Program-made: the position numbers and the translations under genes
The notes under the pieces: generated by a model
What the model saw: the letters and a program-made list of their open reading frames with translations, nothing else
Databases searched by the model: none
Told to the model about the DNA's origin: nothing
Source: an uncultured Bacilli bacterium
GTDB taxonomy: Bacteria > Bacillota_I > Bacilli_A > RF39 > UBA660
Reading direction: 5' to 3'
Length of the DNA stretch: 54,243 nt
NCBI GenBank assembly: GCA_934148875.1
Contig: CAKPDJ010000003.1
Span: forward strand, 1-54,243
Part shown: positions 1,671 to 31,267 of the stretch, in pieces
Layout: every line of letters begins with the position of its first letter
Numbering within the stretch: the stretch's first letter is position 1

Positions 1671-3995
1671 CTAATCATCAAAGAAATCATCGAAAAATTG
1701 ATCATCGCTAATGTTATCGTTCTTAGGTGGCATCTTTTCTTCATGTATTATTGGTTCTTTTACTGATGGTTGTTCTAGGGACACCATTTCATTAGAAGGT
1801 GAGCTAGAAGGCTCAGTAACTGGTGTTTCTTTAGAACTAATATTAGTAATTTCAGTATTGGTTGATTTAGGTTTTAATAAATCATCAATAGATATTTTTC
1901 TCTCCTCAACTGGTTTTTGTTCATTTTTAGGGTTAATATCAATTGTTGAAGGTTTTGGTTGAGGTTCTGAAATAGGTTCAGTTGTTTGTTTTGGTTCACT
2001 AGCTTTTTCTTTTTGTTGTTTTTCTTCTTGTTCAATTTCAGCAATTTTTGCATCAATTTTTTTGATTATATCATCTACATTAAGACCAGCACCTGTGCTA
2101 GTATTATTTGGCATATTATGATTATTAGGCATATTGCCCATCATAGGATTAGTTCTAGGTCCAAACATATTATTAGGTTGTTGGAAACCATTCATTCCTC
2201 CAGGCATTCCTCCAGCAACTGGCATTCCCATAGGCATACCACCTGGTGGATTTGCAGTAGGATCATTCATCATTTGCATTAACTTTTCTTTTTTCTTTTC
2301 CTTAACAAATTCCCTTAAATCGAAAGTATGAACTTCTTCCTTTTCACGCTCTGGATATTCAGCACTTGCATATTTTTTTCCAAATTCCATCTGATAATAT
2401 GGCACAAATTTAGTTTTGAATGGATTTTTACGCATACGTAATATTATAACTTCAAATTGTTTCATACGTTGTAAATCACTAATAGTTACAAGTGGTGTTG
2501 AAGCTGTTTTATCATCTTTTTTAGATTTTACCTCACCACACATTTTACTAATTTCTTCAAGAGCTTTCAATTCGGTAGTAATCAAATATATAATATTACC
2601 GCAGTTACCTTTGATAGTTTCTGCATTTTCTTTTCCATATACTTGATCAAGCTGAGCAAAGTTTTGAATAATCATAGTAAAACGAATTTGACGACTACGT
2701 GCCGCTGTAATCATAGTAGTTATGTCTTTTAATGGTGGCATATTGGCAAACTCATCAAGTAGGAAGTTTGTTCTAACAGGAAGTTTTCCACCATGTTTTT
2801 GAGCAGTTGCGATTAATGTTTCATAACATTGTTTTAATAAGATAGTAACTAATGGGTGATAAGTCTTCTTTTCATCTTGAATAACGATGAATAATGCTGT
2901 AGGTTTTTCACCAATACTTTCTAAATCAATATCGCTATGGCTTAACATTTCGGAAAGATTTTCACGTGATGCAAATAGTTTTATTTTTTGTTTGAATACG
3001 GAAATGATACTTCCCTTTGTTTCACTTGGAGCCATGATAGTACCACTTGCATTGGTATAAGCAGCACTACTTGGATCTTTTAAGTTGAAGTATTCTTTTA
3101 TGTAGGTTGAACCACCAAATTTTTCTTCACCAACAGTAGTCATTAAACTAATACTGTTAATATTTACTTTATCTTCTGTAGTATCTTCAAACATACCAAG
3201 CGCAAGTCCAGCAAAATAATCGGCTGAAGTTTTTTCCCAGAATGGATCGGCATTACCACTTTTTTCCTCATACAGGATATTAGAAGCTAAGTCATCCAAT
3301 AACTCAATAGCTTTATCTTGATTGCCAGATTTATACATACGATATGGTAAAGATAATGGATTCCAAGCACTACCATTTTGTGGATCACGGAAGTTAAGTA
3401 CTAATACTTCGTAACCTTTTTCACGTAGCATGTTTGAAGTTTTTTCATAGATTTCACCTTTAGGGTCAGTAATAATCATTGACTCTTTTTTCTTAGCCAA
3501 AACTTCTACGGTTGGGAAAATTACAGTTTGGGTTTTACCAGAACCTGTTGCACCAATTACTAATGAGTGGTATTCACCATTATCTACCCATACTTCATCT
3601 TTCTTAATGATTAATGGAATACCGGCAACATCAGAGTTTTCAGCATTTGGTTTTACCATAGCTACACCCTTGTCTTCTTTTATTTCCTTTTCTTTAGCCC
3701 AGTGACTATAACCCTTTGAAGATTTTTCTGTTGAAAAACCAAAACCACTTTCTCTCTCAAAGAAATATGAAGAAACTGACATAAAGATTGCAGCTAAAAA
3801 TATAAGATAAAAAACAAGAGTAGCTACTATTCTATTTGGTGCTAGTGCTGGTAATGGATTAAGTCCATAGAAATGTCCTCTTAAGGCTAATTCTGGAAAA
3901 TTTAAAACTCCCAAACAAACTATATAAAATAGAAATATCGCAAATAAAATAAATATTAAAACATCTGTTGCATCAGCTTTAAATTTTAATTTCAT
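1671..3995 (-). CDS. virD4: Type IV coupling protein (VirD4/TraG family) with long low-complexity C-terminal tail
   Basis: Two N-terminal TM helices. Walker A VIGATGSGKTQ (nt 3531-3554). IITDPKGE and FLLDEFANMPPL (Walker B-like) motifs typical of TraG/VirD4. The probable start is ATG 3993-3995 with AGGAGGA 5 nt upstream; the ORF track starts at 4016. The last ~220 aa are P/M/G/N/E/K-rich and end in DDQFFDDFFDD. Confidence 0.85.
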   Translation of the reverse strand: MKLKFKADATDVLIFILFAIFLFYIVCLGVLNFPELALRGHFYGLNPLPALAPNRIVATLVFYLIFLAAIFMSVSSYFFERESGFGFSTEKSSKGYSHWAKEKEIKEDKGVAMVKPNAENSDVAGIPLIIKKDEVWVDNGEYHSLVIGATGSGKTQTVIFPTVEVLAKKKESMIITDPKGEIYEKTSNMLREKGYEVLVLNFRDPQNGSAWNPLSLPYRMYKSGNQDKAIELLDDLASNILYEEKSGNADPFWEKTSADYFAGLALGMFEDTTEDKVNINSISLMTTVGEEKFGGSTYIKEYFNLKDPSSAAYTNASGTIMAPSETKGSIISVFKQKIKLFASRENLSEMLSHSDIDLESIGEKPTALFIVIQDEKKTYHPLVTILLKQCYETLIATAQKHGGKLPVRTNFLLDEFANMPPLKDITTMITAARSRQIRFTMIIQNFAQLDQVYGKENAETIKGNCGNIIYLITTELKALEEISKMCGEVKSKKDDKTASTPLVTISDLQRMKQFEVIILRMRKNPFKTKFVPYYQMEFGKKYASAEYPEREKEEVHTFDLREFVKEKKKEKLMQMMNDPTANPPGGMPMGMPVAGGMPGGMNGFQQPNNMFGPRTNPMMGNMPNNHNMPNNTSTGAGLNVDDIIKKIDAKIAEIEQEEKQQKEKASEPKQTTEPISEPQPKPSTIDINPKNEQKPVEERKISIDDLLKPKSTNTEITNISSKETPVTEPSSSPSNEMVSLEQPSVKEPIIHEEKMPPKNDNISDDQFFDDFFDD

Positions 3996-4005
3996 ACCCT
4001 TCCTC

Positions 4006-29699: not shown

Positions 29700-29701
29700 A
29701 A

Positions 29702-31267
29702 TTACTCTCCTTTCAGTTTATAAAAATATTGGTAGGTACGGATGGTAAACACAAATTCAATACTGTCTGCATTCATAACTTCTTCTGGTATTATAAAATA
29801 TAAGTAATTACCACGATAATTTTTATTTGTTCCATATTTAAGTGTAATCAATTTATATTCATTATTGATGCTATAACGAATTTTTCCGTATTTTGACATA
29901 AAATTCAAAAATTCTTGTTTTGTATTGCTTCCAAATGTACCTTTTATATATAAAATTTTTTGACCAGTATTACTATTTATTGTGGCTTGGTAGATTGGGC
30001 AACTATTAGGACCACATTGTTGATATGTATAGTTAATGGCATCTAATAGTTCATAACTATCCAATTTGAAAGTTATGCTTTCATCAATATTAATAGGAAA
30101 GGTAAATGTTTCTTTTAGTTTCGAGTTTCCCTTTTCTTTAAAAGTACTAATATCTAACACTTTCATTTTAACACCAATTAATTTTCCATCTTTTGCTACC
30201 ATATCTTGGTATTTTAATAGAAAATTTGCTTTATCGTTAGGTTTCTTTACTTCATATATTAAAGAATAAGTGGTTGTATCATTAGGTTTAATACTCTTTC
30301 CTTCATAAGTATTACCCATATCTGAAAAATAAATATTATATTTTGTAGTTGGAACATAATAATCTTGATCTATAAAAAGTAATAACTTTTCAATATCAAA
30401 ATCTCTTGAAACAGCAAGCATGTTTTGAATTTGAACTTGGGCTATTATAAAGAAGCTTCCTTTTTCAGAAACAATGTTACCAGCAAAATCTTTATCCGTT
30501 AAGTAAGTGTTTTTTACGGTTATGCGATAATGATTACTTTCAAAAGCTTCATTCATAGAATATACTTTATTTTCAATATAAAAATATTTATAAAAATTAT
30601 AACCAAATATTATAATAACTAGAGATGCTATTATAGAAAGTGATACCTTATGTTCTAAGAAGAAGTATTTGGAATATCTTAACTTATTTTTTATTTTTCT
30701 AATTATACGATCTTTGTTGAAAGCAACTTGTACTTCTACTTCTTCACGATCTTCTTCATTTATTTCGATAAATTCTTTATCTTCTTGAAAACCAAAACTC
30801 TTTAAATCTATACCTATTGAACGAATTGCTAGAATAAATAACATTGGATAATATGGAAGAGTTGAGATGAATAATATATCTCTTATTACTCTAGTTGCTA
30901 CAATATTATATCCTTTTATTACATTATAATTGAAATAATGTGCAGTATATATAAAGAAAGCAAGTGCTACTATATTTGATATTAATATATAAACATAACT
31001 AGCATACGGTTTATCTTTATGGCGAAGTAAATATATTAAAATGGAACTAATTAATATGATGAAAACAAATGCAAGATAAACATAAATATTAGCATAATTA
31101 CTAATAGAATCGATTGTGGGATTATATATAGCTGTAGCTAAATAACCCTTAACAAACTGGTATATTTTCAAATTTTTGTAAAAAACATAAATGACTAAAA
31201 GAAGTAATAGGATATTAATTCTTTGAAAATATTTAATTAAAAAAGCATATGGTTTTCTAAGAATCAT
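29702..31267 (-). CDS. Membrane protein (4 TM + linker + TM + beta-rich external domain), first gene of the Tad operon
   Basis: 521 aa with hydrophobic segments in the first ~150 aa, an acidic linker (EINEEDREEVEV), a further TM and a ~290-aa C-terminal domain. SD AGGAGG 7 nt upstream. No family recognised. Confidence 0.4.
   Translation of the reverse strand: MILRKPYAFLIKYFQRINILLLLLVIYVFYKNLKIYQFVKGYLATAIYNPTIDSISNYANIYVYLAFVFIILISSILIYLLRHKDKPYASYVYILISNIVALAFFIYTAHYFNYNVIKGYNIVATRVIRDILFISTLPYYPMLFILAIRSIGIDLKSFGFQEDKEFIEINEEDREEVEVQVAFNKDRIIRKIKNKLRYSKYFFLEHKVSLSIIASLVIIIFGYNFYKYFYIENKVYSMNEAFESNHYRITVKNTYLTDKDFAGNIVSEKGSFFIIAQVQIQNMLAVSRDFDIEKLLLFIDQDYYVPTTKYNIYFSDMGNTYEGKSIKPNDTTTYSLIYEVKKPNDKANFLLKYQDMVAKDGKLIGVKMKVLDISTFKEKGNSKLKETFTFPINIDESITFKLDSYELLDAINYTYQQCGPNSCPIYQATINSNTGQKILYIKGTFGSNTKQEFLNFMSKYGKIRYSINNEYKLITLKYGTNKNYRGNYLYFIIPEEVMNADSIEFVFTIRTYQYFYKLKGE

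Follow-up and report, generated by a model that had tools for sequence, protein, structure and literature searches.

The Bacillus subtilis plasmid pLS20 encodes, in genes 34-54, a type IV secretion system (T4SS) for conjugation, of the MPF_FATA class, in which gene 37 specifies a VirB11 homologue, noted as unusual for Gram-positive bacteria; the 2021 description listed genes 36 and 38-47 as unknown and reported the plasmid to lack VirB2 homologues (PMC8557374). Patescibacteria have a chromosomal T4SS that descends from the monoderm MPF_FATA class, with a TrsD-like protein, VirB3, VirB6, hydrolases and PF18895 arrays, and usually no relaxase (PMC12102498); in Southlakia epibionticum this T4SS (SEML1_0006-0019) is essential for growth on the host (PMC10633639). 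According to a 2025 review, the Patescibacteria T4SS is unique among monoderms, both for its VirB2-like pilins and for the need for it in survival (PMC12857230). Here we examine a gene cluster of about 30 kb (1632-31785 at its fullest extent) in an uncultured Bacilli bacterium, contained in a 54-kb window (the whole stretch of DNA analyzed, positions 1 to 54,243 of contig CAKPDJ010000003.1), which encodes both a T4SS and a set of genes around an ATPase of the CpaF/VirB11 family.

The first-pass annotation of this window had presented the cluster as a T4SS joined with a Tad pilus module, an architecture it did not recognize from described systems. We found instead that the pLS20 conjugation operon has the same combination of genes in largely the same order; by homology, the architecture is one already described, and the cluster is a relative of pLS20, which is experimentally conjugative. 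Moreover, the two apparent modules are one unit. The cluster is chromosomal and looks vertically inherited. We consider it probable that the cluster specifies a chromosomal T4SS of the pLS20 kind, with an integral CpaF/VirB11 sub-module and without DNA-processing genes, which has been domesticated for a contact-dependent function. That function, we think, is the delivery of protein or DNA to neighboring cells rather than the spread of a mobile element. We favor a domesticated role because the cluster, which has no relaxase, is a chromosomal fixture in many species.

Between 1671 and 31267 we count 23 minus-strand open reading frames (ORFs) and one plus-strand ORF (16687-18078); the first-pass annotation had placed its ORFs correctly, but had counted 22 on the minus strand. 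The four motifs it quoted map exactly: GATGSGKT at 3531-3554, GTSGSGKST at 8498-8524, VCGETGSGKTE at 22277-22309 and GHNILSTIHS at 22004-22033. Minus-strand genes are spaced by -26 to +94 nt, except in the stretch at 16.6-19.7 kb. In order of transcription, the genes of the ATPase sub-module and the T4SS are:

23600-24028, minus strand: DUF5411 protein with an N-terminal membrane anchor (Pfam DUF5411, 6.9e-50)
22762-23583, minus strand: CpaB/RcpC-like protein (Pfam RcpC, 1.1e-6, 28.9 bits against a cut-off of 28.8, and SAF, 1.5e-4, both just above cut-off)
21365-22735, minus strand: hexameric secretion ATPase of the CpaF/VirB11 family (Pfam T2SSE, 5.1e-27)
20461-21354, minus strand: 297-aa polytopic membrane protein in the "TadB" position (80% mean column identity)
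19676-20461, minus strand: 261-aa membrane protein in the "TadC" position
16369-16575, minus strand: 68-aa single-pass "Flp-like" protein with an invariant N-terminus, MKxATGELNxTVxT
15845-16351, minus strand: 168-aa N-terminally anchored "TadE-like" protein
14864-15835, minus strand: 323-aa cytoplasmic two-domain "TadZ"-like protein (N-terminal alpha/beta domain, then a degenerate MinD/ParA-type domain)
12045-13235, 13246-14346 and 14437-14769, minus strand: three VirB2-like pilin genes (396, 366 and 110 aa; PF18895 T4SS_pilin), the shortest lying farthest upstream
10108-12039, minus strand: VirB6-like polytopic channel protein (Pfam TrbL_4, 2.4e-8)
9761-10084, minus strand: 107-aa two-helix membrane protein in the VirB3 position, placed by position and topology
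9235-9786, minus strand: separate VirB4 N-terminal domain protein, 183 aa, TrsD/TraC-like, overlapping the VirB4 start
7451-9238, minus strand: VirB4 ATPase, C-terminal motor part (Pfam P-loop_TraG, 1.2e-11, and AAA_10)
4753-7431, minus strand: cell-wall hydrolase in the VirB1 role (Pfam SpoIID and CHAP/NlpC-P60)
4006-4743, minus strand: 245-aa lipoprotein with a C-terminal membrane anchor, poorly conserved
1671-4016, minus strand: VirD4 coupling protein (Pfam T4SS-DNA_transf, 7.5e-62, TraG-D_C and TrwB_AAD_bind)

To place the cluster among known plasmids, we compared the ATPase protein to 72,556 plasmids. At least 5000 records contained T2SSE-family genes, and 25 of the 25 best-ranked plasmids listed belong to the ~65-kb pLS20 family, most of them of Bacillus subtilis origin (E 3e-43, with 33% identity across 74% of the query). 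In BLASTP comparisons to pLS20 proteins, we obtained E 7e-49 for the ATPase with gene 37, an orthologue-like match (159 bits, compared to 68 bits with Caulobacter CpaF), 1e-59 for VirD4 with gene 48 (30% identity), and 4e-5 for the DUF5411 protein with gene 36 (25% over 84 aa), which itself matches DUF5411 (1.4e-5). When we searched the pLS20 ORFs with an orthologue profile for each window protein, we obtained these pairs:

VirD4 with gene 48: 4e-65
ATPase with gene 37: 1e-53
VirB4 with gene 52: 4e-37
VirB6 with gene 49: 9e-7
261-aa protein with gene 39: 1.2e-5
anchored 168-aa protein with gene 40: 4e-3
long pilin with gene 45: 5.5e-3
DUF5411 protein with gene 36: 0.015
297-aa protein with gene 38: 0.026, weak

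By hhalign, the 261-aa protein matched gene 39 (E 8e-4 over 133 columns) and the anchored protein matched gene 40 (4e-4 over 41 columns); gene 38, the best pLS20 ORF for the 297-aa protein in the profile search, was a weak match here too (0.18), and itself has a faint full-length match to T2SSF (E 0.19). There was no similarity between the Flp-like protein and gene 41. In pLS20 (L167), gene 45 (14035-14265) matches PF18895 with 32.1 bits, above the gathering score, and gene 36 (9446-9826) is the DUF5411 gene.

In the annotated pLS20 operon, a thioester adhesin is followed by gene 36, the ATPase gene 37, membrane protein genes 38 and 39, gene 40 for a 120-aa anchored protein, a set of small ORFs, VirD4 (48), VirB6-like (49), DUF5592 (50), a 192-aa protein (51) and VirB4 (52), with the MobP2 relaxase gene further on. 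Thus, pLS20 and the cluster have in common a DUF5411-like protein, the ATPase, two membrane proteins, a small anchored protein, a PF18895 pilin, VirD4, VirB6, a small two-helix protein (50), a protein of ~190 aa followed by VirB4, and a wall hydrolase. Both also have a thioester adhesin upstream. We considered the window adhesin as an orthologue of pLS20 Tie and rejected this, as the two have only a domain type in common, with no orthology detectable. The differences are of two kinds. First, only pLS20 is a plasmid, with a MobP2-type relaxase, an oriT, replication functions and quorum-sensing control, and its VirD4 gene precedes that of VirB6, whereas VirD4 ends the cluster here. Second, pLS20 lacks CpaB-like, TadZ-like, sortase and large Cys-rich proteins, and has a single short pilin; the cluster adds all four kinds of protein and a three-gene pilin array. 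As another candidate relative, we examined Bacillus cereus pJ7_3, the best plasmid match to VirB4 (28%), which has a split VirB4 and a lysozyme-family gene and no CpaF-like gene, and was uninformative.

The T4SS assignments of the first-pass annotation (VirD4, VirB4, VirB6-like, VirB2-like and wall hydrolase) were borne out by Pfam, including the placement in the VirB4 and VirD4 families. The 183-aa protein matched NCBIfam VirB4_plasma at positions 99-276 (4.9e-13), and an identical gene carries a precomputed Pfam match to the TraC-like family PF26593. The three pilins matched PF18895 with E-values of 9e-6, 1.1e-3 and 3.4e-3, all just under the Pfam gathering score; the same family was the sole match in six of ten pilin orthologues, the C-terminal two-helix regions of the three pilins align with one another, and pilin genes of this type number two to three per locus in 61 species. 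The two long pilins have Cys-rich N-terminal outside domains. The protein in the VirB3 position has no significant family match in Pfam or NCBIfam and is 41-79% identical among loci. VirB4 is 72-97% identical across species, while the hydrolase keeps its position but varies in sequence (24-48% identity among loci), and the 245-aa lipoprotein has no family match in Pfam or NCBIfam and no PDB match. VirD4 ranges in length from 570 to 878 aa among species, and its C-terminal ~190 aa in the window (1671-2240) are of low complexity, rich in P, M, G and N and then acidic; this tail is a possible docking region for a substrate or partner.

To find out how widely the cluster is conserved, we ran a scan anchored on the ATPase, with one genome per GTDB species, which yielded at least 580 relatives, and we inspected the best 80 loci, in which the ATPase is at least 60% identical. 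The metagenome-assembled genomes (MAGs) with these loci are titled uncultured Bacilli, Tenericutes, "Mycoplasma sp. CAG:877", Candidatus Scybalousia or Faecimonas, and come from the guts of humans, rabbits, ruminants, chickens and mice. The titles Erysipelotrichaceae and Muribaculaceae occur for a few, the latter probably on mislabelled bins: six loci (L025, L027, L044, L047, L061 and L066) are titled "uncultured Muribaculaceae" (Bacteroidota) and yet have the Bacilli-type cluster, for which mislabelling is the most likely explanation. From the names of the MAGs, the relatives probably belong to the GTDB order RF39, a lineage of gut bacteria with reduced genomes (Bacilli incertae sedis in NCBI). 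A literature search for a T4SS or pilus in RF39 found no description. Identical VirB4 with the same neighbors occurs on human-gut metagenome contigs, and VirB4 homologues at 81-97% identity are abundant, the few named ones being "MAG: Bacilli bacterium". With clustering at 50%, the nearest non-orthologous VirB4 representatives are 41-44% identical, the nearest named ones are at ~34% (Thomasclavelia, Coprobacillus and Solobacterium, of the Erysipelotrichales), and a Mycoplasmatota plasmid is more distant; we abandoned placing the VirB4 clade by the names of its distant representatives, as too few are named.

Two results established that the cluster is a single unit. First, tblastn of all window proteins against the 80 loci recovered the full series up to VirB4, on one strand and in one order, wherever the contig reaches: the 521-aa, Ig-like, sortase-like and 1006-aa surface proteins (described below), DUF5411, CpaB, the ATPase, the two membrane proteins, the small protein, the anchored protein, the TadZ-like protein, the pilins, VirB6, VirB3-like, the VirB4 N-domain and VirB4. 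The only apparent breaks in this order were matches of paralogous pilins to the same gene. In a metagenome scan with VirD4, we found VirD4 downstream of VirB4 in all but one locus with enough sequence, and a rhodanese gene next after VirD4 in many. Second, the two halves diverge in step: across 16 complete loci, pairwise identity of VirB4 correlated with that of "TadB" (r = 0.84) and "TadC" (r = 0.82), on a par with pairs within a half. Thus, the proposal that the two modules belong together was upheld, as VirB4 and the CpaF-like ATPase co-occur in the 80 inspected species loci wherever the contig reaches. The parts of the machine do differ in their rates: motor and membrane parts are 60-97% identical compared to 22-68% for surface parts, with VirB6, the hydrolase, the lipoprotein and the surface proteins evolving fast. 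A conserved motor with a variable surface fits a machine that meets variable partners.

We considered that the cluster might be a working conjugation or chromosomal DNA exchange system, which would transfer chromosomal or mobilizable DNA between cells of the lineage, with a relaxase and oriT that are located at another place in the genome or are of an unrecognized family. Its VirD4 is intact, with Walker A and TraG-D_C, the closest characterized relative, pLS20, is truly conjugative and has a relaxase (PMC8557374), and genes for the coupling protein and relaxase can sit far from virB4 (PMC12102498). Among the window ORFs scanned with Pfam, no domain of a relaxase, integrase, replication protein, partition protein or prepilin peptidase was present; five further ORFs, at 41.5-42.6 and 49.4-54.0 kb, were assigned by eye (UDP-GlcNAc 2-epimerase, ABC transporter and rhamnose genes). 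Past VirD4, 10 kb of sequence in each of three distant species encode trigger factor, RmuC, a rhodanese, a class I W/Y-type aminoacyl-tRNA synthetase, a DedA-type protein, a deaminase, two-component proteins and an ABC exporter, with no relaxase-like domain in these 10-kb flanks; the rhodanese, RmuC, synthetase and trigger factor genes are of the housekeeping kind. The first-pass statement that no ORF resembles a relaxase, integrase, replication or partition protein thus stands for the scanned window ORFs and, for relaxases, extends to the flanks of distant relatives. Likewise, the pLS20 relaxase has no homologue in 166 fetched loci. A 413-aa ORF that follows VirD4 in many species, examined as a hidden relaxase, proved to encode a surface protein with a membrane anchor, paralogous to the Ig-like protein. 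Furthermore, the cluster genes without a family all have predicted membrane or secretion features, except the TadZ-like gene, and thus there is no obvious cryptic relaxase in cis. We consider conjugation unlikely on this evidence.

Several points weigh against a domesticated machine, nonetheless. We searched for a relaxase in the 54 kb of the window and in as much as 10 kb of flank, and one may lie elsewhere in the genome; pLS20's own relaxase family long went unrecognized, and VirD4 is the classical DNA-coupling protein. For pLS20 genes 36, 38, 39 and 40, the homology is near the limit of detection, with E-values from 1e-5 to 0.03, and relies on synteny, and the pilin matches fall under the gathering score. 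The best-scoring 80 of at least 580 loci are a sample skewed to closer relatives, and the cluster is known from its genes, the source organism being uncultured. The Patescibacteria, to which we compare the cluster below, are a different phylum, and that likeness is drawn from a published part list.

A second alternative is that two independent machines happen to be neighbors, a Tad-type adhesive pilus and a separate T4SS. Operons with CpaF, GspF-like and DUF5411 genes (8-9 genes) have been predicted in Roseburia, Ruminococcus and Eubacterium, without T4SS genes (Miller et al. 2022, PMC9523054), and Tad-like pili stand alone in TANB77 (PMC11680825). As described, the Roseburia-type operon resembles the cluster in having DUF5411 beside a CpaF-family ATPase and membrane proteins, with adhesion-domain surface proteins, in gut Firmicutes; its membrane protein is recognizable as PilC/GspF, unlike those of the cluster. 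With Tad (type IVc) systems, the cluster has in common an ATPase of the CpaF/TadA-VirB11-FlaI branch, CpaB/RcpC-like and TadZ/CpaE-like proteins, and small anchored proteins. The CpaF-like ATPase and SAF-domain CpaB of the first-pass annotation were confirmed by T2SSE and RcpC/SAF domains, although in PDB searches the ATPase scored alike with CpaF (1.1e-17), FlaI (6.7e-17) and VirB11 (1.3e-16), and the CpaB-like protein had no PDB sequence match.

The remaining Tad labels fared less well. Neither the 297-aa nor the 261-aa protein had a T2SSF match in Pfam or NCBIfam with E-values as high as 10 allowed, hhalign with Escherichia coli HofC as the T2SSF reference detected no similarity to either, and the PDB profile search with the 297-aa "TadB" was empty; thus, placement in the T2SS-E/F families holds for the ATPase but not for the two proteins that had been called type II secretion F-type platform proteins. 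Two further attempts to place these proteins failed: paralogy of "TadB" and "TadC" was rejected, since hhalign aligned only the N-terminal helix (probability 8%), and the AlphaFold model of the 261-aa protein was discarded (pLDDT 58.7), its Foldseek result being meaningless. The "Flp-like" protein has no match in Pfam, NCBIfam or PDB, and its alignment lacks the G/XXXXEY prepilin motif, with no E-Y at +5/+6; it is possibly a fibre subunit. The "TadE-like" protein has no match in Pfam, NCBIfam or PDB, and the label is likewise unsupported. For the "TadZ-like" protein, the label holds at the level of the predicted fold but not of sequence: the AlphaFold model (pLDDT 74.7) has a degenerate P-loop and a second domain of MinD/ParA/BioD type, and Foldseek matched it to ParF, MinD, BioD, HypB and BcsQ, with Eubacterium rectale TadZ (3FKQ) at rank 37 (E 2e-3), one of the weaker matches over the full length, while there was no meaningful match to PDB profiles or Pfam and a weak one to an NCBIfam tyrosine-kinase P-loop family (0.012). 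In relaxed Pfam and NCBIfam scans of the unassigned proteins, this weak match and that of the VirB4 N-domain were the sole results other than noise. The absence of a prepilin peptidase, which the first-pass annotation had noted, holds among the scanned window ORFs. The Tad set is not complete-looking, however, as T2SSF, the Flp G/XXXXEY motif and a prepilin peptidase (TadV/CpaA, A24) were all missing from the window scan.

A further point in favor of two machines is that in this window the halves are split by a terminator-like hairpin and an insert of about 3 kb. The signals and the insert are:

19649-19676, minus strand: terminator-like hairpin directly after the 261-aa "TadC" gene
16687-19434, both strands: strain-specific insert with two polytopic membrane proteins (463 aa, plus; 450 aa, minus), no Pfam match
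16608-16616, minus strand: extended -10 element TGgTATAAT upstream of the Flp-like gene, read from the sequence
1632-1663, minus strand: intrinsic-terminator-like hairpin at the cluster end (14-bp stem and T-run; 0.1 expected by chance)

The insert (3.1 kb) is confined to the nearest relatives of the window, most species having ~100 bp there (median gap between "TadC" and the small protein, 98 bp in the 80 loci), and sister strains (L002, L004 and L005) have a single 498-aa gene in its place. Thus, the insert is a variable cargo slot within an otherwise rigid cluster, outside the conserved machine. A comparable hairpin with a T-run occurs in this spacer in only 4 of 60 other species, whereas the TGnTATAAT box, which the first-pass annotation had called a promoter, is kept at the same position in 48 of 60. 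The conserved box and the rare hairpin argue that a conserved internal promoter precedes the small-protein gene. Internal promoters are common ahead of genes for abundant structural subunits. In the spacers (L007-L086), the conserved box often has a -35 element resembling TTGTAA or TTGATA, which implies that this putative promoter is strong. The terminator at the cluster end, given earlier as 1627-1663, is real as a pattern at 1632-1663. Because the hairpin and the insert close off the upstream half, the claim that the Flp-like gene heads one transcription unit running into the T4SS genes is valid from that gene onward, with the upstream half excluded in this window.

Despite this split, two separate machines are improbable: the halves adjoin and are colinear in 80 of 80 species and diverge in step, the same pairing recurs in pLS20 with the genes interleaved in one conjugation operon, and the T2SSF platform, Flp motif and prepilin peptidase that a Tad pilus would bring were not found. 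A filament machine that works with a T4SS has been described in the IncI1 plasmid R64, where a type-IV-filament machine is encoded with the conjugative T4SS and assists it in forming mating pairs in liquid (PMC12102498). From the descriptions, R64 differs from the cluster in being a Gram-negative plasmid with a type IVb pilus (the PilQ/PilR/PilS/PilU set) and relaxase-dependent transfer.

We also considered a DNA-uptake machine, akin to competence, such as Helicobacter ComB or the archaeal Ced/Ted systems. The cluster is relaxase-less and chromosomal, encodes pilin-like subunits and an ATPase of a retraction-capable family, and reduced-genome lineages often import nucleic acids. However, the known T4SS-type importers (ComB, Ced/Ted) have no coupling protein, whereas VirD4 is present and conserved here, and Pfam detected no ComEC- or ComEA-like domain in the cluster, making uptake very improbable. 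Finally, an ordinary or decaying integrative and conjugative element that landed beside a tad locus is already largely refuted and hardly credible: its class of T4SS is one typically seen in mobile elements of Firmicutes and the G+C content of the cluster (0.28-0.33) is slightly above that of its flanks (0.22-0.27; 0.22-0.33 across the window), but the ORFs are intact in more than 80 species with strongly conserved motor proteins, the same flanking genes recur (rhodanese downstream, thioredoxin upstream), we found no relaxase or integrase in the window and no tRNA genes or credible flanking direct repeats (att) at the cluster, the flanks inspected in distant relatives encoded no DNA-processing genes, and megablast of 22 kb against the 72,556 plasmids gave no DNA match.

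For the domesticated T4SS that we favor, the protein families suggest how each part might act. The SpoIID/CHAP hydrolase would open the wall, and the split VirB4, the VirB3-like protein and VirB6 would form a membrane channel. The VirB4 channel would extract the VirB2-like pilins to make a contact fibre or a stalk through the wall, with the Cys-rich outside domains of the pilins oxidized by the neighboring lipoprotein thioredoxin. The CpaF/VirB11-type hexamer would sit on the two polytopic membrane proteins with its CpaB-like and TadZ-like partners, and might either assemble the small anchored proteins into a short fibre or serve as a third motor of the T4SS. VirD4 would select the substrate and feed it outward.

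By analogy, the nearest functional counterpart of such a machine appears to be the chromosomal relaxase-less T4SS of Patescibacteria. Both are chromosomal, lineage-wide and without a relaxase nearby, in reduced genomes, and both have a TrsD-like split VirB4, VirB3, VirB6, hydrolases and a divergent PF18895 pilin array. In contrast, no CpaF/VirB11-type ATPase sub-module has been reported in Patescibacteria, and their coupling protein is usually unlinked to virB4 and was not found essential in S. epibionticum, while here it is linked and conserved.

Upstream of the ATPase sub-module, the cluster encodes a set of surface proteins, and a thioredoxin gene diverges from its start:

31372-31785, plus strand: lipoprotein thioredoxin, divergent from the cluster start (Pfam Thioredoxin, 4.7e-11; F-plasmid TraF, 2e-6, weak)
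29702-31267, minus strand: 521-aa polytopic membrane protein with a large C-terminal outside domain, the first cluster gene
27873-29699, minus strand: 608-aa membrane-anchored surface protein with a bacterial Ig-like domain (Pfam Bact_surface_Ig-like, 4.6e-18)
27075-27830, minus strand: sortase-like transpeptidase (Pfam Sortase, 2.4e-7, above cut-off), conserved in the loci
24038-27058, minus strand: 1006-aa secreted Cys-rich protein (33 Cys), fast-evolving (22-67% identity among species)

The 521-aa gene is colinear in nearly all loci long enough to reach it, and its product has no match in Pfam or NCBIfam. The 608-aa protein is 28-68% identical among loci, with PDB matches over the Ig-like domain only; the sortase-like protein has the Cys motif TCT at 27195-27203, and the 1006-aa protein has no Pfam or PDB match. 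These four proteins presumably act in surface display or adhesion. In at least 27 species loci, the thioredoxin gene (32-82% identity) is the immediate upstream neighbor of the 521-aa gene, and its product probably handles the disulfides of the Cys-rich surface proteins. The Cys counts of the outside proteins of the cluster are unusually high (33, 12 and 12).

We noted additional surface genes nearby. About 40 loci besides L152 (12469-13710) and L141 (12505-13737) have an extra gene between VirD4 and the rhodanese gene, for a membrane-anchored Cys-containing protein of ~410 aa, a paralogue of the 608-aa Ig-like protein in its C-terminal part. A few species have a copy in the pilin region, and the window has no entry among the best 40 matches listed for this paralogue. 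Just upstream of the cluster, at 31811-34502 (minus strand), are a sortase and an adhesin with a thioester domain and SpaA fold. Beyond these, a long co-directional locus for cell-envelope polysaccharide (34593-53958) encodes GalE, several GT2/GT4 glycosyltransferases, a methyltransferase and an acetyltransferase, and, identified by eye only, a TagGH-like ABC exporter, an apparent RmlC-RmlD fusion (51597-53051) and RmlA.

Tentatively, we suggest as a possibility that a large lineage of reduced-genome gut Bacilli has domesticated a pLS20-type machine, with its VirB2-like pilins and pilus-type motor, into a lineage-defining contact apparatus, with which these bacteria attach to other bacteria or to host cells and exchange macromolecules. 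If true, this lineage would be the second in which a T4SS was co-opted for a dependent lifestyle, Patescibacteria being the first, and there would be a hint that these gut bacteria, which are abundant, live as epibionts or parasites of other microbes. In any case, the cluster shows that a chromosomal T4SS with a pilin array and no relaxase is kept in a true Firmicutes lineage as well, one common in the guts of humans and animals, and that this T4SS has in addition a motor set of the CpaF/VirB11 type. The cluster ties this system to pLS20 in Bacillus subtilis, which is genetically tractable, and suggests that pLS20 genes 36-41 and 45 constitute a fibre-assembly sub-module with a VirB2-like pilin. 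Such a sub-module in pLS20 bears on the textbook view that Gram-positive conjugation proceeds without pili. The cluster is also a candidate key to the lifestyle of an uncultured gut lineage, and perhaps to its cultivation.

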